The position numbers and the translations under genes are program-made. This document shows positions 2,220 to 42,044 of a stretch of DNA of 64,000 bases, piece by piece. The notes beneath the pieces were generated by a model that saw only the letters and a list, made by a program, of their open reading frames with translations, was not told the DNA's origin and did not search any database. Source of the DNA: a virus (taxonomy: Duplodnaviria > Caudoviricetes); IMG/VR virus record IMGVR_UViG_3300014208_000027, positions 32,001 to 96,000 of that record. The stretch is one strand, 5' to 3'. Within the stretch, counting starts at the first letter, position 1. Each line of letters opens with the position of its first letter.

Positions 2220-2495
2220 TCAGGAGTGCAATACTGATTCTAACATTCTTTTTGTTTCACTCGTTAATTTGTGTCCAAGCGATCGCAAACTCTCACTAAT
2301 CAATAATTTAACTTGTGCTAATGGGACATAAGTACTTCTATTCCAAGCACTATCTGGATCAAAAACAAATTCAGGTTTAACAGGCCCAGTTTCTTTAGTT
2401 ATGATTTCTTTTTTTTTACTTACACAAACTGCTTTATTATCTAAAGATGTTTTAGCTTCTCGGATAGTTTTAGCTTCGTCTTCATAATTTGACAT
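2220..2495 (-). CDS. Hypothetical protein
   Basis: 91-aa ORF, overlaps the upstream gene. Confidence 0.6.
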   Translation of the reverse strand: MSNYEDEAKTIREAKTSLDNKAVCVSKKKEIITKETGPVKPEFVFDPDSAWNRSTYVPLAQVKLLISESLRSLGHKLTSETKRMLESVLHS

Positions 2496-2685
2496 TTTTA
2501 GACTTTCTAAAGTATTGTTTTAATTTATATATTTCAACATCTGCCAATAACTCCAAAAGAGTTTTAGGAAGCTGCGCTGAACTTTTTAAACATTGTTCCC
2601 ACCCGTCTGTTGAATAAATTCGTTGTTCCTCGTCAAAATAAACTTTAATTTTGTCGGTTGACATATTGTCAATATGGCAGAACAA
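2482..2685 (-). CDS. Hypothetical protein
   Basis: 67-aa ORF in the operon. Confidence 0.5.
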   Translation of the reverse strand: MFCHIDNMSTDKIKVYFDEEQRIYSTDGWEQCLKSSAQLPKTLLELLADVEIYKLKQYFRKSKNVKL

Positions 2686-3109
2686 TGATTTTTGTCAAGT
2701 GGGTAACAAACAAATTTATCCATTGAGCCATTTTGTTTTCTACGTGTATACAACCATGACTATGGTGAAAAAAATTTCCTTTCCATTCATTTTCACTACT
2801 TCCATGAATACTTTGTGAGTTTATTTTTACAGCCCAAGGCATTTTAGCTTTATTTTTTTTGTCTAACGGGTATAAAGAAGACCTGTGATATTTCGTATAT
2901 TTCACCAACGGATAAAATATTCCGTGTAGCGTTTTACAACCTCTATTAATGTCCGGGCAGTACCTTTTTCCACCACTCGCCAAACCAGTCTTTATTTCTT
3001 TACCATCATAATCATATGCTGTCCATTTAAAATGCTTCAAATCAATAACAATAGTTTGTTCTTTTGGTTGAGAATGAAACAAAAACAAAGAAAAAATTAC
3101 TATTTTCAC
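2669..3109 (-). CDS. L,D-transpeptidase (YkuD) catalytic-domain protein with short hydrophobic N-terminus
   Basis: S.G...T..G.F, KMPWAV, SIHGS...SHGCIHV (H-x14-16-HGC motif). Confidence 0.8.
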   Translation of the reverse strand: MKIVIFSLFLFHSQPKEQTIVIDLKHFKWTAYDYDGKEIKTGLASGGKRYCPDINRGCKTLHGIFYPLVKYTKYHRSSLYPLDKKNKAKMPWAVKINSQSIHGSSENEWKGNFFHHSHGCIHVENKMAQWINLFVTHLTKIIVLPY

Positions 3110-3115
3110 AATTAA

Positions 3116-3172
3116 ACATTAGCAAAAAGTTATTATTTTGTCAATTGACATTTTTTATCTTTCTGATATGAT
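3116..3172. promoter_or_regulatory. Divergent pair of sigma70-type promoters sharing the palindrome TGTCAATTGACA
   Basis: + strand TTGACA 3145-3150, 16 nt, TGa-TATGAT 3167-3172; - strand TTGACA 3144-3139, 17 nt, TGc-TAATGT 3121-3116. Confidence 0.7.
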
Positions 3173-3178
3173 ATAGTT

Positions 3179-3766
3179 ATGAACACTAAGTTGACGATTT
3201 TTTGTGATATGGATGGTGTTCTTGTGAATTTTCGAGATGCCGTCTTGGAACTTATAAATTATTCCTTATACAACAAAGAAATTTTTGATCCTTTTGAAAA
3301 AAAAATGACTGAAGAATTAACTAATATGTATTGTGGTAGAAAAATAACGATTGAAAATTTTCTAAAAGAAGACTCTAAAACACCTTATCTTTCTTATTAT
3401 ATGTTTTTTTTAATTCGTAACGCTATTAATCTTTGGGCAGACTTACCGTGGAATCCAGGTGGTAAAGAACTTTGGAAATATCTTCTTTTAAATTATAGAA
3501 ACGTTTGTATTTTATCTGCGCCTGCTGACGGTAAAGCATTTGAAAATTGTATTCGCGGCAAATGTCAATGGATAACTAAAAATCTTTGTTATCCTATTGA
3601 AAAATGTTACTTCTATAAAAAGAAATACATATTTTCTAATAAAAAATCTATACTTATTGATGATAGAAAAGATAACGTAGAACTTTTTCGACAAAAAGGT
3701 GGTTTTGCTATTCTTCATAAAGATGCAAAAACTACTATTTTAACCCTTCAGACATTTTTTCAATAA
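3179..3766 (+). CDS. HAD-family 5'(3')-deoxyribonucleotidase (NT5C-like)
   Basis: Motif I CDMDGVL, ILSAP, K, motif IV ILIDDR..N. Confidence 0.85.
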   Translation: MNTKLTIFCDMDGVLVNFRDAVLELINYSLYNKEIFDPFEKKMTEELTNMYCGRKITIENFLKEDSKTPYLSYYMFFLIRNAINLWADLPWNPGGKELWKYLLLNYRNVCILSAPADGKAFENCIRGKCQWITKNLCYPIEKCYFYKKKYIFSNKKSILIDDRKDNVELFRQKGGFAILHKDAKTTILTLQTFFQ

Positions 3767-3787
3767 TCTTTTTTCTTTTTATTCCGT

Positions 3788-3794
3788 CTAATTA
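3788..3794 (+). promoter_or_regulatory. Putative phage late-promoter heptamer CTAATTA
   Basis: 4 nt before ATG 3799; same motif and spacing recur. Confidence 0.6.
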
Positions 3795-3798
3795 AGGC

Positions 3799-4293
3799 AT
3801 GGACAAAACCTTACTTAAACAATTAATTCTTGAAGAAATGCAAAATATGGTCACTGAAGCCACAGTTGATCCTGCTCAGCAAAAAAAAATGGCTATTGAA
3901 AATGTTAATAAACACTTTAGATTACTTAAACTTTTGAAATCAACCATTAAACAAATTAAAATGCCTGATGAATTTAGTAAAATGTCTGAAATGGTTAAAA
4001 ACTCTAACACACCTTCATTTCTTTCGCAATTTCTAGGCGTTAAAGATGATGTACCTGTGAAAGTTGAGGCTCTCTTGACAAATCCACTTGGAGTAATTCA
4101 ATCCGTAATTGATGAAGTTATTGGAAGTGCTTATAAAAATGCCAAACAAAAATTAACAGAAGATAAAAATATTGTCGGCGGAATTAAACGCTTAGGATTA
4201 GAAGACCCTGACATGCTCAAGAAAAAACACGATAAGAAAAAGAAAACATCTACTATTAAAGAGCCTATTGTGGAAACAAGTGACAAAGATTAA
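3799..4293 (+). CDS. Hypothetical (probable virion/head) protein
   Basis: N-terminal LKQLILEE..VTE motif; heptamer upstream. Confidence 0.6.
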   Translation: MDKTLLKQLILEEMQNMVTEATVDPAQQKKMAIENVNKHFRLLKLLKSTIKQIKMPDEFSKMSEMVKNSNTPSFLSQFLGVKDDVPVKVEALLTNPLGVIQSVIDEVIGSAYKNAKQKLTEDKNIVGGIKRLGLEDPDMLKKKHDKKKKTSTIKEPIVETSDKD

Positions 4294-4295
4294 CA

Positions 4296-4715
4296 GTGAA
4301 TAATTTTCTTAAAGATTCTGCTAAATTAAAAGAACTTCAAACTCTTTTAATCGATTTATATAAATTTATAACTGAACAGCTATCATTTTCTCCTGGTATA
4401 TTAATTATTTTAAAACATGATGGTCAAAATGCGAGTAATCCACTAGGCAATACTGGATATTTTGACGTAGGCAACAAAAAAATAATTCTCTATACGACAG
4501 ATAGACACATTAAAGACATTTTAAGAACATTTGCTCATGAAATGTACCATGTATTTCAAAATTATGATGGCAAATTGACGGGTGAAGAAAAAACATATTC
4601 TTCAAAATATTTTCAAGAAGATCCTCATTTAAGAGAACTTGAAAAAGAAGCCTATGAAAAAGGAAATATATTATTCAGAACTTGGACAGAAAACAAATCT
4701 GGCAAAGAAAAATAA
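4296..4715 (+). CDS. Zinc metallopeptidase-like protein (HExxH)
   Basis: DILRTFAHEMYH...E.EAY. Confidence 0.7.
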   Translation: MNNFLKDSAKLKELQTLLIDLYKFITEQLSFSPGILIILKHDGQNASNPLGNTGYFDVGNKKIILYTTDRHIKDILRTFAHEMYHVFQNYDGKLTGEEKTYSSKYFQEDPHLRELEKEAYEKGNILFRTWTENKSGKEK

Positions 4716-5897
4716 ATGATCGCATATGCTTGTAGCGTCAATGCTCCATTACTTGCAAGATGGGATGGTAGTTCGTGGGCATCGGTAACTATCCCAGCTA
4801 AAACAATTGGAAACAATACACCCCAAATTATTAAAGGCTCAAGCGCAAGTAATATTTGGATGGCAGGAGATAGCCCAGCAGAAGTTTGGTATTATAATGG
4901 AACTTCTTGGAGTTTGGTTTCAACTGGAATAACTTCTACGTGGAAAGTAAACGACCTTCTTGTTTTATCTCCAACAGACGTATGGTTGTCAGTTAATGAA
5001 GCTGGAGCGTCTAAAGGGATATATTTTTATGATGGCGCTACGTGGTCTTTGGAATATAACTCTTCATTTGTAGGATTTAAGGGTTGTGGTACTGGAACAA
5101 GTAAGTCCGATGCATTTTTAATGTATGGAACTCATCCTGCTCATGGTTCGTATAGGTATAATGGGTCATGGTCTCAAATAGCTGTCGGATCAGCAAATTG
5201 GGTGGATGGAATTTCTTGTTTGTCTTCAACAAATGTATGGGCTAGAACTGCCGCAGCAACTCCTGATGTTTACAGTTTTAATGGAACGTCTTGGTCTTTG
5301 CAGTTTTCCGGAACAAATCTAGCAGCCTCAAGTTTAAATGTTAATGGAAATAAAATTTATTCTAATTCATCTAATGGTAAAATATGGATTATGGGCGATG
5401 TTGGTGGTTCAACTTCTACAACACTACACTACTGGTATTTTAATGGAACAACTTGGTCAGATAATAATGATGGTGCTGTAAAAACCGCTGGAGCAACTTT
5501 GAGAGATGGTGGAATACATGGAGATGGAGATAATGTATGTATGGTTGGTGGATCGGATGCGTTCTTTTGGAACGGAACTGCATTTACGCTAGATACTACA
5601 GGCGTTACTTTTAATGGGGTAAAGGATGTTTTTGTTGTGCCTTCTACGATTTCTCCCGTTGTTGTTCGTTCTTGCCCTTTACCTCCAATCGGCTCTGATT
5701 TTACTATTAATAATTTAAATTGTTTGCCTAGTCAGTTTTATGATGGGTCTGGTAATTCATTAACTATCGCTCCATATTTTCTCAATACTCCCATGGCATC
5801 TTTAAGAAATCGAGCAAATCCGCTATCTTCCACGTTACAAGAGCAAAAAGTTAAATTTACAACTCTTCCAAAGAGTACCTCTACGGGTTCATTCTAG
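4716..5897 (+). CDS. Ser/Thr/Gly-rich beta-propeller repeat protein (possible fibre/adhesin)
   Basis: Repeated (W/Y)-x-(Y/F)-(N/D)-G-x-x-W-S units about every 45-48 aa. Confidence 0.7.
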   Translation: MIAYACSVNAPLLARWDGSSWASVTIPAKTIGNNTPQIIKGSSASNIWMAGDSPAEVWYYNGTSWSLVSTGITSTWKVNDLLVLSPTDVWLSVNEAGASKGIYFYDGATWSLEYNSSFVGFKGCGTGTSKSDAFLMYGTHPAHGSYRYNGSWSQIAVGSANWVDGISCLSSTNVWARTAAATPDVYSFNGTSWSLQFSGTNLAASSLNVNGNKIYSNSSNGKIWIMGDVGGSTSTTLHYWYFNGTTWSDNNDGAVKTAGATLRDGGIHGDGDNVCMVGGSDAFFWNGTAFTLDTTGVTFNGVKDVFVVPSTISPVVVRSCPLPPIGSDFTINNLNCLPSQFYDGSGNSLTIAPYFLNTPMASLRNRANPLSSTLQEQKVKFTTLPKSTSTGSF

Positions 5898-5906
5898 AAA
5901 CAAAAA

Positions 5907-5913
5907 CTAATTA
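5907..5913 (+). promoter_or_regulatory. Putative late-promoter heptamer CTAATTA
   Basis: Intergenic, upstream of SD AAGGAG and ATG 5935. Confidence 0.5.
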
Positions 5914-5934
5914 TTTTCACAAAGGAGTATCCTC

Positions 5935-6159
5935 ATGGCCAGTCCTAGACGTAGACGAGCACTTAAACTTGCAAGGCAACAAAAAAATAATCCTTTACCT
6001 GTACAAGAAGTAGTAGTTCCTGTAGAGGTAGTTGAAGTAGAACTTCCAGTTGTTGAGGAGGTTGTTACTGAAAAAATTGTTCAAGAGGTAGAACCAGTCA
6101 CAGTTAAACAAACTTATGCAAGTGTTGGTAGACCTAGAAAGAATAAGGCTACATCTTAA
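5935..6159 (+). CDS. Hypothetical protein with basic ends and an acidic Val/Glu/Pro core
   Basis: SD AAGGAG; MASPRRRRALK..VEEVV..GRPRK. Confidence 0.65.
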   Translation: MASPRRRRALKLARQQKNNPLPVQEVVVPVEVVEVELPVVEEVVTEKIVQEVEPVTVKQTYASVGRPRKNKATS

Positions 6160-6161
6160 TA

Positions 6162-6455
6162 ATGTACAAAGTAAAAGTTAATTTTGATGAATTTGGAAAA
6201 CTTATCAGAGATTTTTTAACTGAAAATCTTAACAAACCTAGTTTACAAAGTTATGTTGAAAACTTAACTAAAATTGTAGAGGGTATGAAGCCTCATTCAA
6301 GTAAAGAAGTTAGATATTATGAAATGGCTAGACATAATCTTCGTGAAATTCGTAACGGTATTAAGCGTTTGGAAGAAGAAAAAAATACATTAGCTGAACA
6401 ACTTAAACTATTAGAAGAAGAAAAGGTAGCCAAACTAAGTGGTAGAAAAAAATAA
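6162..6455 (+). CDS. Hypothetical coiled-coil protein
   Basis: 97-aa ORF, heptad C-terminus. Confidence 0.65.
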   Translation: MYKVKVNFDEFGKLIRDFLTENLNKPSLQSYVENLTKIVEGMKPHSSKEVRYYEMARHNLREIRNGIKRLEEEKNTLAEQLKLLEEEKVAKLSGRKK

Positions 6456-7485
6456 AGTTATCTCTGAAGAATCTGCAATGGGTGCTGGTGCTGTAGTCGG
6501 TGCTCCTAGCTTATCAGGCTCTTTAGAAGAAGAAAAAGATTATCAAACTTCTGTGAAATCTCATCATTCTGGTTATAAATCTGCGATGATTGACCATGGT
6601 AATCAAACAAAAGGTAGCGAACCTTTTACTGTTAAACCTAATATGAAACGTAGTAAGTCTGCGCCTCCTTTAGGAGAAGATTTTAAAATGACTGATAAAG
6701 CTCAAATAGATGAAGAACTTACCTTACGAAAAGCTATTCGTAATTTTATTAAAGAAGAAAAAAGTTCTTTACTTAAAGAATCATTAGAAGAGTCTAAACT
6801 TCGGGGATATATTCGCACTCTTCTCAAGGAAGAAAAAAGCAAAGTCGAAAAAGAAATACCCTACGATTCTACCGGTATTAATGTACTAGAAGATTTGCTA
6901 AAGAAAGTTCTTCCTATTGTTGAGACAGACTTTAAAAGTTTAACTTCCGATCCAGCTCAAAGAGAAAGTTTCAGGGCACACATTCTAACATCTATTCAAA
7001 ATACGCTTATGCCTTCCATCTTAACGAAGCATAGAGAGCGAAGAGAAGATAGTCCTGCTGAATCTCCAGAAATGGAATTAGAAGATAAAGAATTAGATGT
7101 AACCATTGGTTCTGATACTGTTCCTATGACTTCACCGGATCCTACAGGTTTTATTGATATCAGTAAAAAGAAGCCGCATGTATCATCCTTTGTAAATCTA
7201 CCCGATCAGGACGAGACGGGCAAAAATATGGCGCTGAAAACGTTCGACAAGATAGAAAAAAGTATTCTTGAGGCGTATGAAATTCTAGCTAATGAAGAAG
7301 ATGAACAGTTGTTTTATGATTATCTCATTACAAATCTGAAATTATATTGCGAAAAATGGTCTGATGAGTTAAGTTCGTCAGTAGAAGAACCTACTACACC
7401 AGAGTACGAAAAGACTAAAGATGATATCGAACAAATCAAAAGTCAAACCGATCCGGATGTAGCCTCAGATAATCCGGTCAATTAA
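6439..7485 (+). CDS. Hypothetical acidic protein, possible head scaffold/core
   Basis: Repeated LR..IR..(I/L)KEE motifs, very acidic. Confidence 0.65.
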   Translation: MVEKNKVISEESAMGAGAVVGAPSLSGSLEEEKDYQTSVKSHHSGYKSAMIDHGNQTKGSEPFTVKPNMKRSKSAPPLGEDFKMTDKAQIDEELTLRKAIRNFIKEEKSSLLKESLEESKLRGYIRTLLKEEKSKVEKEIPYDSTGINVLEDLLKKVLPIVETDFKSLTSDPAQRESFRAHILTSIQNTLMPSILTKHRERREDSPAESPEMELEDKELDVTIGSDTVPMTSPDPTGFIDISKKKPHVSSFVNLPDQDETGKNMALKTFDKIEKSILEAYEILANEEDEQLFYDYLITNLKLYCEKWSDELSSSVEEPTTPEYEKTKDDIEQIKSQTDPDVASDNPVN

Positions 7486-37314: not shown

Positions 37315-38513
37315 AGGTTTTGTTCGCTAATTTTTTTAATGATGAAGCTTACGGAATGAGAATTTTGCATTCTATTGTTTCAGAAAGGTATGATTGTAAA
37401 ATTCTTTTCATTAAAGAAAATAATGAACAATTAATAACGAAAGTTATTTCTAATTACTCTCCTGATGTGTTGTGTGTCAGTCTTACTTCCCCTAATTTTT
37501 GTTTGTACAAAAAACTTTATGAGGGTATTAGAAAATCTATGAATGGTGGTTTGATTGTTCTGGGTGGTTGGCATCCCACATTAAACCCAAATTCCTGTGC
37601 TCCATATTGTGATGTTGTTGTTCAAGGTGAGGCAGAAAAAAATATACTGAAGATTCTTGATGATATAGAAAGAAAATCTTTTTTAAATTTATATACGTTT
37701 TCGTCGCTTTCTAAAGATATTAATCACCCTCTTTTTGTATTTAATGGGAATAATTGCATAACAATTGAAAAAGGACAAATTCTTTTCGGTGAACCTTATT
37801 CTAGAAACGAACGCTATGGAACAATGATGGGTAGAGGTTGCCCTTATAGTTGTACTTATTGTTCTAATTCATTTATGAAAGAAAAATATAATAACTGGAC
37901 GAAAATTAGATATAGAAACTTTGAAAAGGTTTTGGAAGAACTTTTAGTGGTTCGTAAATTGTTTCCAAATATTAAAAAAATAAACTTCTATGATGAGGTA
38001 TTCTTTCAGACAGAACAGTATGATTCTTTTTTAAGGCAATATAAGCAGGAGATTGGTCTACCATTTTTTTGTATGTTTTACCCTGGAACTGTTTCTGAGC
38101 CTATGGTAGAAAAATTAAAAGAAGCAGGAATGGTCGGAGTATGGTTGGGTGTTCAATCTGGATCTGAGAGAGTTAGGAGACACGTCTTTGAAAGACGATA
38201 TTCAAACGAGAAACTAATGAAACAGATTCTCATGTTTAAAAAACATGACGTTGATGTAAGATATGATTTTATTTTCAGTAATCCGTTTGAAACCAAGGAA
38301 GAATATCAAGAGACAATACAGTTAATAAAAACATTTCCAAAGCCATTTTCCATTAATATGTTTGAACTTAAGTGGTTTCCAAATACAAAAATAACAAAAA
38401 TGGCTTTGGAAAGTGGTTATTCAATAACTACAGAAGATGAAATATTTTATGAAAACCCTTCATACTTGATAGATGAAGAAAAACAAAAAGAAATCTTACA
38501 GGAAATCGGTTAG
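37311..38513 (+). CDS. B12-binding radical SAM enzyme (class B)
   Basis: GGWHPT..P, GEAE; GRGCPYSCTYC; DE.F; GVQSGSERVR. Confidence 0.9.
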   Translation: MKVLFANFFNDEAYGMRILHSIVSERYDCKILFIKENNEQLITKVISNYSPDVLCVSLTSPNFCLYKKLYEGIRKSMNGGLIVLGGWHPTLNPNSCAPYCDVVVQGEAEKNILKILDDIERKSFLNLYTFSSLSKDINHPLFVFNGNNCITIEKGQILFGEPYSRNERYGTMMGRGCPYSCTYCSNSFMKEKYNNWTKIRYRNFEKVLEELLVVRKLFPNIKKINFYDEVFFQTEQYDSFLRQYKQEIGLPFFCMFYPGTVSEPMVEKLKEAGMVGVWLGVQSGSERVRRHVFERRYSNEKLMKQILMFKKHDVDVRYDFIFSNPFETKEEYQETIQLIKTFPKPFSINMFELKWFPNTKITKMALESGYSITTEDEIFYENPSYLIDEEKQKEILQEIG

Positions 38514-38547
38514 TGTATAAAGCTATTTTTTTTAAGCTTATAGAAAA

Positions 38548-38967
38548 ATGATGGTACTTGAAGAAGACACTAGACGATGTACTCGATGTAGAAAAGTAAA
38601 AAGTATTATTGAATTTGATGAGAAGTCTACTGATGAACATTATAAATCTTGTTCAAAATGTCTTGATTATGAAAGAGAATATAAACATCGTAGAAACAAA
38701 GAAGTAACAAAGAAAAATAAGCGTACTAGAGATTTGAAAAGATTATATAATCTTTCTTTAGAAGAATATGAAAAAATGGTTGCATTACAAGGTGGAAAAT
38801 GTTATATTTGTCAAAGAGATAAAAAATTAGTAGTTGACCATAACCATTTAACCAATAAAGTAAGGTCGCTACTATGTGATAAGTGCAATAGAGGGTTAGG
38901 TTTTTTTGATGAAGATATTGGTTTTTTAATTGGCGCTATAGAGTATTTACAACTTCACAAGGGATAA
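38548..38967 (+). CDS. Endonuclease VII-like HNH homing endonuclease
   Basis: CTRC..CSKC; Y.L..EEY..M...Q.GKC.IC, VDHNH.T.KVR.LLC.KCN.GLG. Confidence 0.9.
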   Translation: MMVLEEDTRRCTRCRKVKSIIEFDEKSTDEHYKSCSKCLDYEREYKHRRNKEVTKKNKRTRDLKRLYNLSLEEYEKMVALQGGKCYICQRDKKLVVDHNHLTNKVRSLLCDKCNRGLGFFDEDIGFLIGAIEYLQLHKG

Positions 38968-38971
38968 AAAA

Positions 38972-39151
38972 ATGAAAGTGTCTAGACAGTTTGCAAAAAG
39001 TTTAATGCTAGCAGTACAAAAAAGTATTATGGAACAAGTTGATATTCTTGAAACCTTGGAAGGATTTGAAGTCGTCGATACTGAAGATGGCCTAGTGGTA
39101 ACAAATCCGCCCATTTTGAAAGTTGATACTGTTACACCTGAAGAAGAATAA
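38972..39151 (+). CDS. 59-aa hypothetical phage protein (not in track)
   Basis: MKVSRQFAKSLMLAVQKSIMEQVDIL...GLVVTNPP... Confidence 0.7.
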   Translation: MKVSRQFAKSLMLAVQKSIMEQVDILETLEGFEVVDTEDGLVVTNPPILKVDTVTPEEE

Positions 39152-39153
39152 TC

Positions 39154-39411
39154 TTGCCTATCTACACCTACCATTGTTCATCTTGTTTAATAAATTTTTG
39201 TGTTTCTCATATGTTGTGTGAAAAAATCGAATATTGTGAATGTGGTGGTAAGGTAGAACGAGTTCCAAGTAATTTCTCAAGTTCTGGAGTTATACAAAGG
39301 CAGCAAAATAAAAAAGTTGGCGATGATACTAAGAAATTTATTGAAGAATCTCGGAAAGCATTACAATCCCAACGAGAAGAGTTAGAAACACAAAGAACCA
39401 CGGGTAGATAA
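39154..39411 (+). CDS. FmdB-like zinc-ribbon protein; last codons replaced by the tnpB element
   Basis: MPIYTYHCSSC..F...H.....C.CGG. Confidence 0.8.
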   Translation: MPIYTYHCSSCLINFCVSHMLCEKIEYCECGGKVERVPSNFSSSGVIQRQQNKKVGDDTKKFIEESRKALQSQREELETQRTTGR

Positions 39412-39414
39412 CAG

Positions 39415-39444
39415 TTGACTAAACCATTTACATTGATATATAAT
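39415..39444 (+). promoter_or_regulatory. sigma70-type promoter of tnpB inside the element's left end
   Basis: TTGACT-18 nt-TATAAT. Confidence 0.65.
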
Positions 39445-39457
39445 CACTTATAAATAA

Positions 39458-40633
39458 ATGCTAAGAGCCTATAAGACAGAATTAAACCCAAATAATAAAC
39501 AAAGGACGCTTCTGTTAAAGCACGCTGGCGCAGCCAGGTGGGCTTATAATTGGGGTTTAGCTAAAAAGATTGAAGAATATCAATCAACCGGAAATTCTCC
39601 TTCTGCAATTGATTTACACAAGCAGTTGAATTTACTGAAGAAAACTGAGATATCTTGGATGTATGAAGTCTCCAAAATGGCTCCGCAGGAGGCTTTGAGA
39701 AACCTTGATATAGCTTTTAAGAACTTCTTTAGAAATTGTAAGAAAGGTTCTAAACAAAAAGGTTTCCCAAGATTTAAATCTAAGAAAAATGGAGTTGGTT
39801 CGTTTACCTTTTCCATGCAAGTCCGAGTAATTAATGGAAAAATCCAGTTACCAAGATTAGGAAAGATTCGACTAAAAGAAACTGACTATTTTCCAACTAA
39901 TACTAAGATTAGGTCCGCAACCGTTTCGGAAAAAGCTGGCAGATGGTTTGTATCAATTTTAGTTGACGAAGAATTTACCAAAGAGCAAGGTGGTGAAATT
40001 ATTGGAGTTGATGTTGGAATCAAGACTTTGGCAACTTTGTCCAATGGAATTATTTTTGAAAATTCAAGGTCTCTAAAAAAACACGAAAGGAAACTGCGAA
40101 GACGAAGTAAATCAGTTTCTCGCAAAAAGAAAGGATCAAACAATAGAAAGAAAGAAGTCAAGAAGTTAGCGAAGCTACACTACAAAATCTCTTGTACCCG
40201 AAAAGATTCAATTCATAAAGCTACGACTGCGATAACCAAGCAGGCAAAAGTTTTGTGTATCGAAAACTTGAATGTTTCCGGCATGATGAAAAATCACAAG
40301 CTAGCGAAATCATTGTCGGATGCTTCAATGGGAGAATTTTTAAGACAACTGGAATATAAGGCAAGCTGGGCAAATATTCCAGTAATTAAAGCTGATCGAT
40401 TTTTCGCTAGTAGTAAGTTGTGTTCGAATTGTGGTTGTCTCAAAGAAACATTAAGTTTAGGTGAACGAATTTATTGTTGTGAACATTGCAATCTTTCTAT
40501 TGACCGAGACTTAAATGCAGCAATTAATCTAAAAACCTTGGCCGGTAGTTTACCGGACAATAAAAACGACTCTGGAGGCACTCGGTTGGTGTCGGTGAAA
40601 GAGGAAAAAAGCACAATTAGTAACAATTGGTAA
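39458..40633 (+). CDS. tnpB: RNA-guided endonuclease TnpB
   Basis: HTH_OrfB N-terminus, GFPRFK, RuvC-I GVDVGIK, RuvC-II IENL, Zn finger CSNC..CEHC, RuvC-III DRDLNAAINL. Confidence 0.95.
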   Translation: MLRAYKTELNPNNKQRTLLLKHAGAARWAYNWGLAKKIEEYQSTGNSPSAIDLHKQLNLLKKTEISWMYEVSKMAPQEALRNLDIAFKNFFRNCKKGSKQKGFPRFKSKKNGVGSFTFSMQVRVINGKIQLPRLGKIRLKETDYFPTNTKIRSATVSEKAGRWFVSILVDEEFTKEQGGEIIGVDVGIKTLATLSNGIIFENSRSLKKHERKLRRRSKSVSRKKKGSNNRKKEVKKLAKLHYKISCTRKDSIHKATTAITKQAKVLCIENLNVSGMMKNHKLAKSLSDASMGEFLRQLEYKASWANIPVIKADRFFASSKLCSNCGCLKETLSLGERIYCCEHCNLSIDRDLNAAINLKTLAGSLPDNKNDSGGTRLVSVKEEKSTISNNW

Positions 40634-40667
40634 GTCTTTTATAACGGAATACCAGTAAAGGTTAACA
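40520..40667 (+). ncRNA. Predicted omega/reRNA scaffold plus guide of TnpB
   Basis: Hairpins CCGGTA-gtt-TACCGG (40542-40556) and CTCT..GGCAC/GTGTC..AGAG (40570-40603) in the tnpB 3' end; guide would start at 40648. Confidence 0.65.
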
Positions 40668-40979
40668 ATGATATTTTTAAGCATATTTCTTGTTCTTTCC
40701 ATATCAATAAATATATTGCTGGTTTGGTATTGTAGAAAGGTTACTGAGCGTCTATATTATGTATCTGAAAATATGGGAGAATTTCATGAAAGAATTGCAG
40801 AGTTTGAAGAACATGTAAACGTAATTTCGACAATGGAAACATTTATTGGAGAACCTATTATAGAAAACTTACAGAAACATGCCAGAGCTATGGTAGAAGA
40901 AATTAAATCTTATAAAGAAGTTTATTCTTTAACACATGAAGTTCAAGGCGATCAAGTTGTCGAGGAATCTGAAGTTTAA
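40668..40979 (+). CDS. Membrane-anchored coiled-coil protein
   Basis: N-terminal TM, then heptads. Confidence 0.7.
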   Translation: MIFLSIFLVLSISINILLVWYCRKVTERLYYVSENMGEFHERIAEFEEHVNVISTMETFIGEPIIENLQKHARAMVEEIKSYKEVYSLTHEVQGDQVVEESEV

Positions 40980-41698
40980 TGGCTAGACCTAAAGGTTCTA
41001 CTAAAAGCGTAGCCAGGCCCGGTCAAGATAAAAAACAATATTTTACTAAAGATCATGAAAACGCTATTCTTGCTTATGTAAAAACTGATAGTCTTCCTAT
41101 TCGTACCAAACTTTATATTCAGTTCATAGAGCCTTCATTTTCAGAAATGGTAGAAAAGATTTCCTTCACTTATAAATTTAATTCTTTGCCTAACATAAGT
41201 TTTCTCAAAGAAGAATGTAAGATTTGGCTTGTGACTATTTTAGATAAATTTGATGTTAATAAGGGCTATAAAGCTTTTTCTTATTTTTCTATTATAACCA
41301 AGAATTGGTTTATAGCTAAGACAAAGAAGAACGCTAGTCAAAATAAAAAAGAGATTCAAGGTGAAGATCTTTCCAAAGAGTTAGAATACAAATACTATTC
41401 TGATAGTAATGAATACTTTGAGAAGCGTGAAGAGGCTGAATTTTGGATTCACTTCTTGCAAGAGTTAGATCGTTGGGACGACTTAGCTGTTAAGGAAAAT
41501 GAAGTAAAAGTATTAGATGGTATTAAAGTTTTGGTAGCAAACATAGAAGATATACCAATTTTTAATAAGAAGGCAATTTATTTTTTCCTTCGTGAAATTA
41601 CCAACCTATCAACCAAGCAAATCGTAGCATCGTTGAATAAGTTTAAAGCAGAATATAAGTTGTTCAAGAATGATTGGGATAACGGCGAAACTTTTTAA
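40979..41698 (+). CDS. Phage sigma-factor-like protein (gp55-like, region 2)
   Basis: QYF...HE.AI..Y; KFD..KG.KAFSYFS.ITKN.F resembles sigma region 2.2-2.3. Confidence 0.6.
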   Translation: MARPKGSTKSVARPGQDKKQYFTKDHENAILAYVKTDSLPIRTKLYIQFIEPSFSEMVEKISFTYKFNSLPNISFLKEECKIWLVTILDKFDVNKGYKAFSYFSIITKNWFIAKTKKNASQNKKEIQGEDLSKELEYKYYSDSNEYFEKREEAEFWIHFLQELDRWDDLAVKENEVKVLDGIKVLVANIEDIPIFNKKAIYFFLREITNLSTKQIVASLNKFKAEYKLFKNDWDNGETF

Positions 41699-41699
41699 C

Positions 41700-42044
41700 A
41701 TGGCAAAGAAAAATATATATTGTGTTGAAGTGCTAACAAAATTTGTTGTAGAGGCTGAGACAGAAGAAGAAGTTTATCACAAGTCTATAGACTATGCTAA
41801 GGAAGAAATTATAAATTCTGGAACGATAGAAAAAGTAGTTTTGATTTCTAGTCTGTCTGACCTTCCCAGCGATTGGAAAGAATTTCATTTGCCTTATGAT
41901 CAAAAAAATAGTATTACTATAGGTAACCATTTAAAAATACCTCCTAGAGTTATGGGCGAGTCAAAAACTTTTGAAAAACAAGTTGGATTACCTCACGATA
42001 TGGCATTAAAAATTTTCAATAATATGACAAAAAAAGGGGGCTAA
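41700..42044 (+). CDS. Hypothetical protein (start set at ATG 41700)
   Basis: In-operon ORF. Confidence 0.6.
   Translation: MAKKNIYCVEVLTKFVVEAETEEEVYHKSIDYAKEEIINSGTIEKVVLISSLSDLPSDWKEFHLPYDQKNSITIGNHLKIPPRVMGESKTFEKQVGLPHDMALKIFNNMTKKGG

Follow-up and report, generated by a model that had tools for sequence, protein, structure and literature searches.

A tnpB-only element in a groundwater phage is very likely an IS607-family insertion sequence that has lost its serine-recombinase gene

What kind of mobile element separates two conserved genes of a groundwater phage, and what could it still do there, is the question raised by a locus in the window, by which we mean the whole 64,000-nt stretch of DNA analyzed here. 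The window comes from an IMG/VR virus record of 203,498 bp, and both runs containing the stretch are groundwater metagenomes. The site lies between a conserved Zn-ribbon gene and the downstream gene p103, and the element which occupies it is 1,243 or 1,244 bp long, its left border being placed to within one base (39404). Our analysis indicates that it is very probably a non-autonomous insertion sequence of the IS607 family, which has lost the serine-recombinase gene but kept the left end, tnpB, and the guide-RNA right end. Judged from its sequence, the element is a genuine, well-bounded member of this known family and in itself ordinary; new are the exact borders, the model of the guide RNA, and a test case for self versus non-self that hangs on one G. 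Its parts are as follows (TAM, target-adjacent motif):

39402 to 39404, plus strand: GGG at the left junction, a TAM-like family motif that contains the GG crossover core (copy comparison in relatives)
39405 to 39457, plus strand: left end of the element (TAGA-TAACAG...), 53 nt (motif common to relatives)
39415 to 39420 and 39439 to 39444, plus strand: −35 and −10 boxes of the promoter match (promoter scan)
39458 to 40633, plus strand: tnpB, 391 aa, predicted RNA-guided RuvC nuclease with a zinc finger (Pfam, PDB, PHROG 506)
40546 to 40647, plus strand: predicted guide-RNA (omegaRNA/reRNA) scaffold, which ends ...GTAAGTCTTTTATAACGG (covariance model R1)
40648 to 40667, plus strand: predicted guide/target, the 20-nt spacer before p103, AATACCAGTAAAGGTT plus AACA (border comparison)

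The tnpB product carries all three Pfam TnpB domains (HTH_OrfB_IS605, OrfB_IS605, and the zinc-finger domain Cas12f1-like_TNB, the latter with an E value of 1e-21), is assigned to PHROG 506, and aligns over its full length to the TnpB of ISDra2 (PDB 8BF8/8EXA; E value 9e-70). The catalytic D-E-D positions lie in the motifs GVDVGI, IENL, and DRDLNAA, which align with the ISDra2 motifs. The RuvC triad D185/E269/D351, invariant in the family alignment A1, is intact, as a sequence-only reading of the locus had proposed, and all invariant family residues are retained. This tnpB is the sole one in the 203-kb genome. Those characteristics of a TnpB/OMEGA system that can be read from sequence are present, namely the RuvC triad and TNB domain in the protein, and a structured right-end RNA which overlaps the 3′ end of tnpB and extends to the border.

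The right border was located by comparison with relatives. When the 3′ ends of the closest viral relatives were aligned, the similarity reached a common ...GTAAGTTTTTYAGAACGG and halted exactly after CGG every time. A profile of the last 24 nt identified the same ending behind tnpB homologues in about 60 loci, all with different flanks, from phages, cyanobacteria, Chloroflexota, Actinomycetota, and Asgard archaea metagenome-assembled genomes (MAGs); in these family members, the guide-RNA scaffold has a conserved 3′ terminus, AACGG. Aligned with one another, 32 right ends share an architecture of hairpin, GCCUGUGGAG, variable stem, GAAGCAGGAAG, hairpin, and GUAAGUUU...AACGG, with compensatory changes in 21 of the 23 predicted pairs. 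The covariance model R1, which was built from 28 relatives with the window excluded, matched at 40546-40647 over its full length and up to the end at 40647 (57.4 bits, E value 2e-12), with all four conserved scaffold helices present, and this match is the only one in the whole phage genome. Over 42 matches, 95.8% of the cells were paired compared to 72% in shuffles and both sides change in 17 of 18 pairs, whereby this signal collapses when the pairing partners are slid; as the alignment was fitted to the model, these statistics are somewhat favored. The score of the window scaffold is third from the bottom in the family (57 bits versus 70-116), and its variable middle stem is absent. No Rfam family, RAGATH-18 included, matches the window right end at E values up to 1. 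The scaffold overlaps the last 88 nt of tnpB, in line with the hairpins that the sequence-only reading had seen across the 3′ end of the gene.

Since the model match and the border comparison both end at 40647, the right border is exact and the guide is predicted to start at 40648, in agreement with the earlier placement. The guide 16-mer AATACCAGTAAAGGTT has no other match with fewer than three mismatches in the genome; its sole perfect match is the element's own flank, preceded by ACGG. This ACGG is found at 39400-39403 and again at 40644-40647. It is not a target duplication, because the right-hand ACGG is conserved element sequence, the scaffold end in about 60 relatives. Taken as a duplication, moreover, a repeat of four bases carries no significance, and GG is all that would be expected in common. 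As to the wider occurrence of the scaffold family, which ends GTAAGTTTnnnAGAACGG, 65 matches were counted in one 11-Mb Okeania genome (G002, the genome of locus L149) and seven in the Flammeovirgaceae genome G001, and the scaffold lies behind tnpB in MAGs of Asgard archaea, Chloroflexota, and Actinomycetota (L081-L129 comprising the Asgard and Chloroflexota loci).

The family assignment comes from complete relatives. The viral contig L002 (IMGVR_UViG_3300009664_000734, 18.8 kb) harbors two tandem complete IS607 elements, 2268-4245 and 4579-6741, in both of which a TnpA (MerR-HTH plus resolvase) immediately precedes a TnpB with 54% identity to that of the window. The element at 4579-6741 has the left end GGG then AATC-TAACAG and the right end ...CAGAACGG; the window element has the same ends, GGG then TAGA-TAACAG and ...TATAACGG. 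The sequence-only reading had taken the GG-core junctions as pointing to IS607, and these complete relatives bear this out. GG is present at both junctions, in ACGGG then TAGA on the left and in AACGG then AATA on the right, as in about 28 relatives, and there are neither terminal inverted repeats nor a target duplication. The serine-recombinase TnpA itself is present in the relatives with the same ends but missing here: the absence of a serine recombinase noted earlier extends to the entire 203,498-bp record, which contains no match to PF00239 (resolvase) or PF01797 (Y1, HUH transposase), and the suggested search for a tnpA in trans gave no candidate in the phage genome. Because TnpA is absent here and present in relatives with the same ends, the window element would be a tnpA-less IS607 derivative and not autonomous. 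The relatives L177 and L005 are tnpA-less derivatives as well, which arose via deletion between two TAACAG repeats, and tnpB-only derivatives of IS607 and IS605 elements are common. The element is also of a known kind among phages, where PHROG 506 is a large family, ISCaje3 occurs in Campylobacter phages, and tnpB cassettes are common. A blastn search of the phage collection gave only short tnpB matches, in Campylobacter phages.

Some observations on the relatives may be added. The two TnpAs of L002 are 48% identical to each other, and both of its right ends match the scaffold model. In L005 (2107-2901 and 2989-4259), the tnpA-less family copy is inserted in the 3′ part of another, very divergent TnpB-like open reading frame (ORF), which shows a weak OrfB_IS605 match (E value 0.036) and takes its stop, TAA, from the left-end motif TAACAG. 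L006 and L031 are related elements at different sites, which have their left border about 1,390 nt before the right end in the form AAAGGAG-N-TTAACATGG without GGG, and in which AAGGAG is the ribosome-binding site of a small, very basic 46-aa ORF within the element.

The left end bears the motif N4-TAAC(A/T)G that is common to the window element and its relatives, and the left junction reads CCAC-GGG-TAGATAAC. Stop codons in all three frames can be read within 14 nt. A sigma-70-like promoter match, TTGACT-18-TATAAT at 39415-39444, agrees with the consensus in 11 of 12 bases, so that the promoter previously attributed to the element stands as a consensus match only. How the insertion affects its surroundings depends on the two flanking genes:

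39154 to 39411, plus strand: Zn-ribbon (FmdB-like) gene, 85 aa, TTG start (Pfam and homologues)
40668 to 40979, plus strand: p103, conserved downstream gene, 103 aa, predicted membrane protein (tblastn synteny in L035-L061 and L158-L160)

The Zn-ribbon gene has a weak Pfam match (Zn_ribbon_8, E value 1.4e-4). Its homologues in at least 15 related phage contigs are 77-90 aa long and begin MP.Y.Y.C, and this start coincides with the TTG at 39154; gene callers on identical contigs picked an internal ATG instead, which leaves 66 aa only. The insertion swaps the last few codons of the gene for GR-stop. The final two codons and the stop (GGT AGA TAA) come from the junction and the element left end, and the substitute stop credited to the element is therefore found as described. 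Likewise, deletion of 39404-40647 does give ACC ACG GAA TAC CAG TAA AGGTTAACA ATG. The further claim that this deletion restores the ribosome-binding site of the next gene fails, since the site of p103 sits in the right flank (within 40648-40667) and is intact with or without the element.

For the TAM, the sequence-only reading had proposed an ending in (AC)GG. The left junctions of relatives were first found by comparing closely related copies at different sites, whereby no motif was used, and in six groups of such copies the shared sequence begins with GGG, about four bases, and TAAC. In one Flammeovirgaceae genome, GGG likewise stands at the left junction of five full-length copies, and a motif scan lists 28 junctions with GGG, about four bases, and TAAC. 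The copy-to-copy comparison in two bacterial genomes gives GGG at the left junction but cannot assign the Gs to target or element. The Okeania locus L149 has its element inside a DUF4347 domain, of which the left fragment covers profile positions 1-56 and the right fragment matches from position 59, at the second residue of the fragment; one bridging codon (G+CA) rejoins the domain without insertion or deletion only if all Gs of the run belong to the target. In a frame test over about 28 family insertions, which gave mostly noise, L149 alone was decisive and L112 suggestive, while L166, L129, and L101, whose two halves are not one gene, pointed other ways. Among characterized proteins, CboTnpB requires TGGG and spares its own TCGG end, position −3 being discriminated (bioRxiv 10.1101/2023.11.20.567912), and GGG was depleted in TAM assays with the ISXfa1 TnpB (PMC10711439). 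From the left junctions of the relatives, the DUF4347 reconstruction in L149, and the published TGGG and GGG, we take the family TAM to be GGG. The apparent family rule is a TAM of NGGG and a right end ...ACGG that stands for “self”; the ACGG formerly proposed as the TAM is thus the “self” signature of the right end.

Given GGG at 39402-39404, the vacant site could have been (a) CCACGG or (b) CCACGGG, then AATACC. Under site (a), the Zn-ribbon gene, like its relatives of 77-90 aa, stops shortly before the next ATG (TTEYQ-stop, nine bases away), and the TAM is ACGG, identical to the element right end; thus, a nuclease that spares its own junction should spare site (a) too. Under site (b), the TAM is CGGG with G at −3, whereas the Zn-ribbon frame continues 32 codons into p103, which is seen in none of about 18 relatives, and C at position −4 is rare in family TAMs (2 of 28). 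Site (a) is possible if the window left end starts with a G or brought a G from its previous site, and it is possible as an insertion site because the IS607 TnpA strictly requires only GG (bioRxiv 10.1101/2023.11.20.567912). We regard the two sites as about even, leaning to (a). A ..REY.. tail was considered as support for site (a) and discarded with little weight, as it occurs only in distant marine relatives and the three closest are without it. The earlier claim that the deletion restores a natural C-terminus (RTTEYQ-stop) holds for the sequence as given under site (a), but not together with a cleavable target: according to our analysis, the known IS607 rules allow a restored C-terminus or a cleavable homing target, not the two at once.

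A further observation concerns the similarity between left ends and right flanks. In L007 (= L190; left junction at about 2863, right end at 4224), left end and right flank open with the same 8 nt (TGAAATAA), and due to this identity the interrupted ORF ends ...CWVK-stop with or without the element. Over 27 elements, the in-register similarity was 3.4 of 10 compared to 2.9 of 10 in shuffled pairings (p about 0.03), a hint that targets resembling the circle junction are chosen or that “spare” gene ends are carried along.

Related phages lacking the element were found in number. A search with the conserved downstream protein p239 (239 aa) identified 26 viral contigs in which p59, Zn-ribbon gene, p103, and p239 follow one another; tnpB is absent and the Zn-ribbon stop falls 5-40 nt ahead of the p103 start. 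Three closer relatives from the protein collection show the same arrangement without an element, and overall the flanking genes are adjacent in about 28 related phage contigs (p103 directly after the Zn-ribbon gene by tblastn, L035-L061 and L158-L160). The nearest relative, L158 (p239 82% identical, about 68% nucleotide identity over the region), reads AACCACGGTGAAAATAAATAAAGGTTAAAAACTATG unbroken. As AACCACGG is uninterrupted at the site in L158, the left flank up to ACGG is native phage DNA and the element was inserted exactly there; beyond ACGG, L158 departs from the guide at too many positions to serve as a target. The expectation of an empty site in relatives is consequently supported by gene order and by the uninterrupted AACCACGG, but the exact empty junction is absent in the collections searched, with 0 matches for form (a) in viral_contigs and 0 for forms (a) and (b) in metagenome_contigs.

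At the population level, identical TnpB, p103, and p59 proteins are present on four contigs, all of which are filled and 100% identical in DNA; look-ups for element-free contigs with identical p103/p59 gave filled contigs only and no population signal. Two groundwater studies, from 2018 and 2022, contain the identical filled form, and in the 2022 run contigs span both junctions without differences while none joins across the element. No RNA data set was listed among the runs containing the stretch. The runs were compared as contigs, which cannot reveal rare variants, and the three joints listed in the runs are short matches to tnpB genes of other organisms. Among the contigs compared, neither a pair of filled and empty alleles in near-identical genomes, as expected for a homing element, nor a sign of recent movement was found.

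According to the IS607 reading, the element would have arrived by GG-core serine-recombinase transposition, with TnpA either acting in trans or encoded by a tnpA that was deleted afterwards. Judging from the family, tnpB would be transcribed from the left-end promoter match, and since there is no terminator before p103, the transcripts would run through the guide. TnpB is known to process the 3′ end of its own mRNA into guide RNA (PMC10278001). The window TnpB may do the same, the right flank serving as a guide of 16-20 nt, and the complex would then cut DNA that bears a GGG-type TAM beside AATACCAGTAAAGGTT. Without TnpA, the element would be unable to transpose alone. If the original site was CCACGG, which the coding logic favors, the vacant site would be ignored by the nuclease and the element would be a stranded passenger; if it was CCACGGG, which the family rule favors, siblings lacking the element could be entered by RNA-guided homing, with CGGG as the TAM.

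Such homing had been suggested by the sequence-only reading, in which an RNA-guided element cuts element-free siblings during co-infection while staying nearly neutral. In detail, TnpB and guide RNA would cut at the TAM plus AATACCAGTAAAGGTT, and phage recombination would then copy the element into the break. We consider it possible but rather doubtful that the element is active in this way. The intact nuclease, the conserved scaffold, and the promoter match would suit it, as would a guide that matches the insertion site only, an insertion which costs just the last codons of a small gene, and, under site (b), the required G at −3. In addition, work in E. coli showed that IS607 TnpB homes into empty donor joints (bioRxiv 10.1101/2023.11.20.567912), and a 2026 review counts co-infecting phages among the targets expected for “non-restorative homing” (PMC13565253). 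However, the TAM of site (a) equals the element right end and by the family logic and the Cbo experiments is “self” and uncut, whereas site (b) forfeits the restored gene end, with the frame running 32 codons into the next gene, and has the rare C at −4. The uniformly filled contigs, the absent empty junctions, and the mismatched site of the nearest relative also argue against homing; no element-free sibling was found, and homing and near-neutrality both remain conjectural. A broader idea, which we hold improbable, is that among T4-like phages the TnpB-only IS607 cassettes make up a class of natural gene drives guided by RNA. Their insertion sites would be the final codons of conserved genes or the positions just after them, their own promoter and stops would spare the host gene, and siblings would be converted during co-infection via phage recombination, the window element being active with TAM CGGG and guide AATACCAGTAAAGGTT.

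Conversely, the element might be an inert relic of a dead-end insertion, in which TnpB and guide RNA are idle and the intact look reflects recent arrival or hitch-hiking. The missing tnpA, the single copy in the genome, the low-scoring scaffold without its middle stem, and a TAM that is unusable under site (a) would fit. We nevertheless think this quite unlikely, as a 391-codon frame stays open in DNA of 35% G+C with all invariant residues kept, the four conserved helices and a near-consensus promoter match are present, and phage genomes usually shed useless DNA fast. An IS200/IS605-type (Y1) element or an IStron is hardly credible and was rejected: the best solved-structure match does come from an IS200/IS605 element (ISDra2) and the only annotated phage matches carry the label IS200/IS605 ISCaje3, but PF01797 is absent from the genome, the junctions show a GG core and GGG and not an AT-rich TAM of the TTAC/TTGAT type, the same-ended relatives carry MerR-plus-resolvase TnpA and not Y1, and with a left end of only 53 nt no group I intron was matched in Rfam (E values up to 1, 38000-42000).

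Several points weigh against the assignment of the window element as a tnpA-less IS607 derivative with a GGG-type TAM. Its left border was placed by motif similarity, as no close copy exists, and with the nearest other TnpB being 63% identical, recent mobility and insertion age cannot be judged. Similarity of TnpB alone does not fix the family, the closest solved structure being an IS200/IS605 TnpB. The L006/L031 subfamily is without GGG at the left junction, so the TAM of the window TnpB could differ from GGG. Finally, nuclease activity, guide RNA, and transcript are predictions from the DNA sequence.

In the neighborhood, p239 (window 40979-41698) has no Pfam or PHROG match; some of its homologues are labelled “DNA-directed RNA polymerase specialized sigma subunit” by JGI, and more than 4,000 relatives, mostly marine, were found at E values below 1e-20. 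An endonuclease VII gene (139 aa) lies at window 38548-38967, immediately upstream of p59. The 26 related contigs gave no homologue of it in the 4 kb that precede their conserved p59-to-p239 block, so that its position, or its presence, is specific to the window lineage.

Cas12 descends from TnpB elements, which are also under development as compact genome editors. In lytic phages, where transposition is unlikely and recombination intense, a role of TnpB has been proposed but not demonstrated. The window copy offers a clean, bounded case with a defined guide and two candidate targets that are one G apart, the “self” motif and the canonical TAM, and this pair bears on the ability to home as well as on the strictness with which IS607 TnpB separates self from non-self. 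Furthermore, the structure model traces one scaffold family across phages, cyanobacteria, Chloroflexota, and Asgard archaea MAGs and is useful for annotation.

Among known systems, the CboIStron of Clostridium botulinum, an IS607 element, likewise has GG-core junctions, a motif ending in GGG 5′ of the left end, and a scaffold that ends ...CGG directly before the guide; there, self and non-self are set by position −3 (G in the TAM, C in the right end), and TnpB can home into empty donor joints (Zedaveinyte et al., bioRxiv 10.1101/2023.11.20.567912). In contrast to it, the window element has neither a group I intron nor tnpA, resides in a lytic-type phage and not in a bacterial chromosome, and has a candidate TAM only. 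ISXfa1 (Yoon et al., NAR 2023, PMC10711439) likewise pairs its IS607 TnpB with an RNA from the right end, about 150 nt long and running past the border, and with a GG crossover common to ends and target, and GGG was depleted in its TAM assays; unlike the window element, it is complete and bacterial. The L002 elements differ in that they keep the MerR-plus-resolvase TnpA, and 4579-6741 has an extra small upstream ORF. With the ISDra2 TnpB (PDB 8BF8, 8EXA, 8H1J), the window protein has in common the architecture, the catalytic triad, and a guide RNA from the right end, whereas ISDra2 uses a Y1 transposase, a single-stranded DNA route, and the TAM TTGAT, and the window element has IS607-type ends. 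The tnpB-only ISCaje3 copies of the Campylobacter phages CP220, CC_R7, and CJLB-14 are comparable as transposase-less tnpB genes in large virulent phages; they are annotated as IS200/IS605, and the tnpB match covers only about 110-140 nt of the query, at 73-75% nucleotide identity. Finally, the free-standing homing endonucleases Seg and Mob of T4-like phages (PMC2330249, PMC2790892) are nuclease genes similarly wedged between conserved phage genes and have been proposed to spread in co-infection through double-strand-break repair. They recognize DNA by protein and tell self apart by sequence differences, whereas the window element would do so by a predicted guide RNA plus a TAM.

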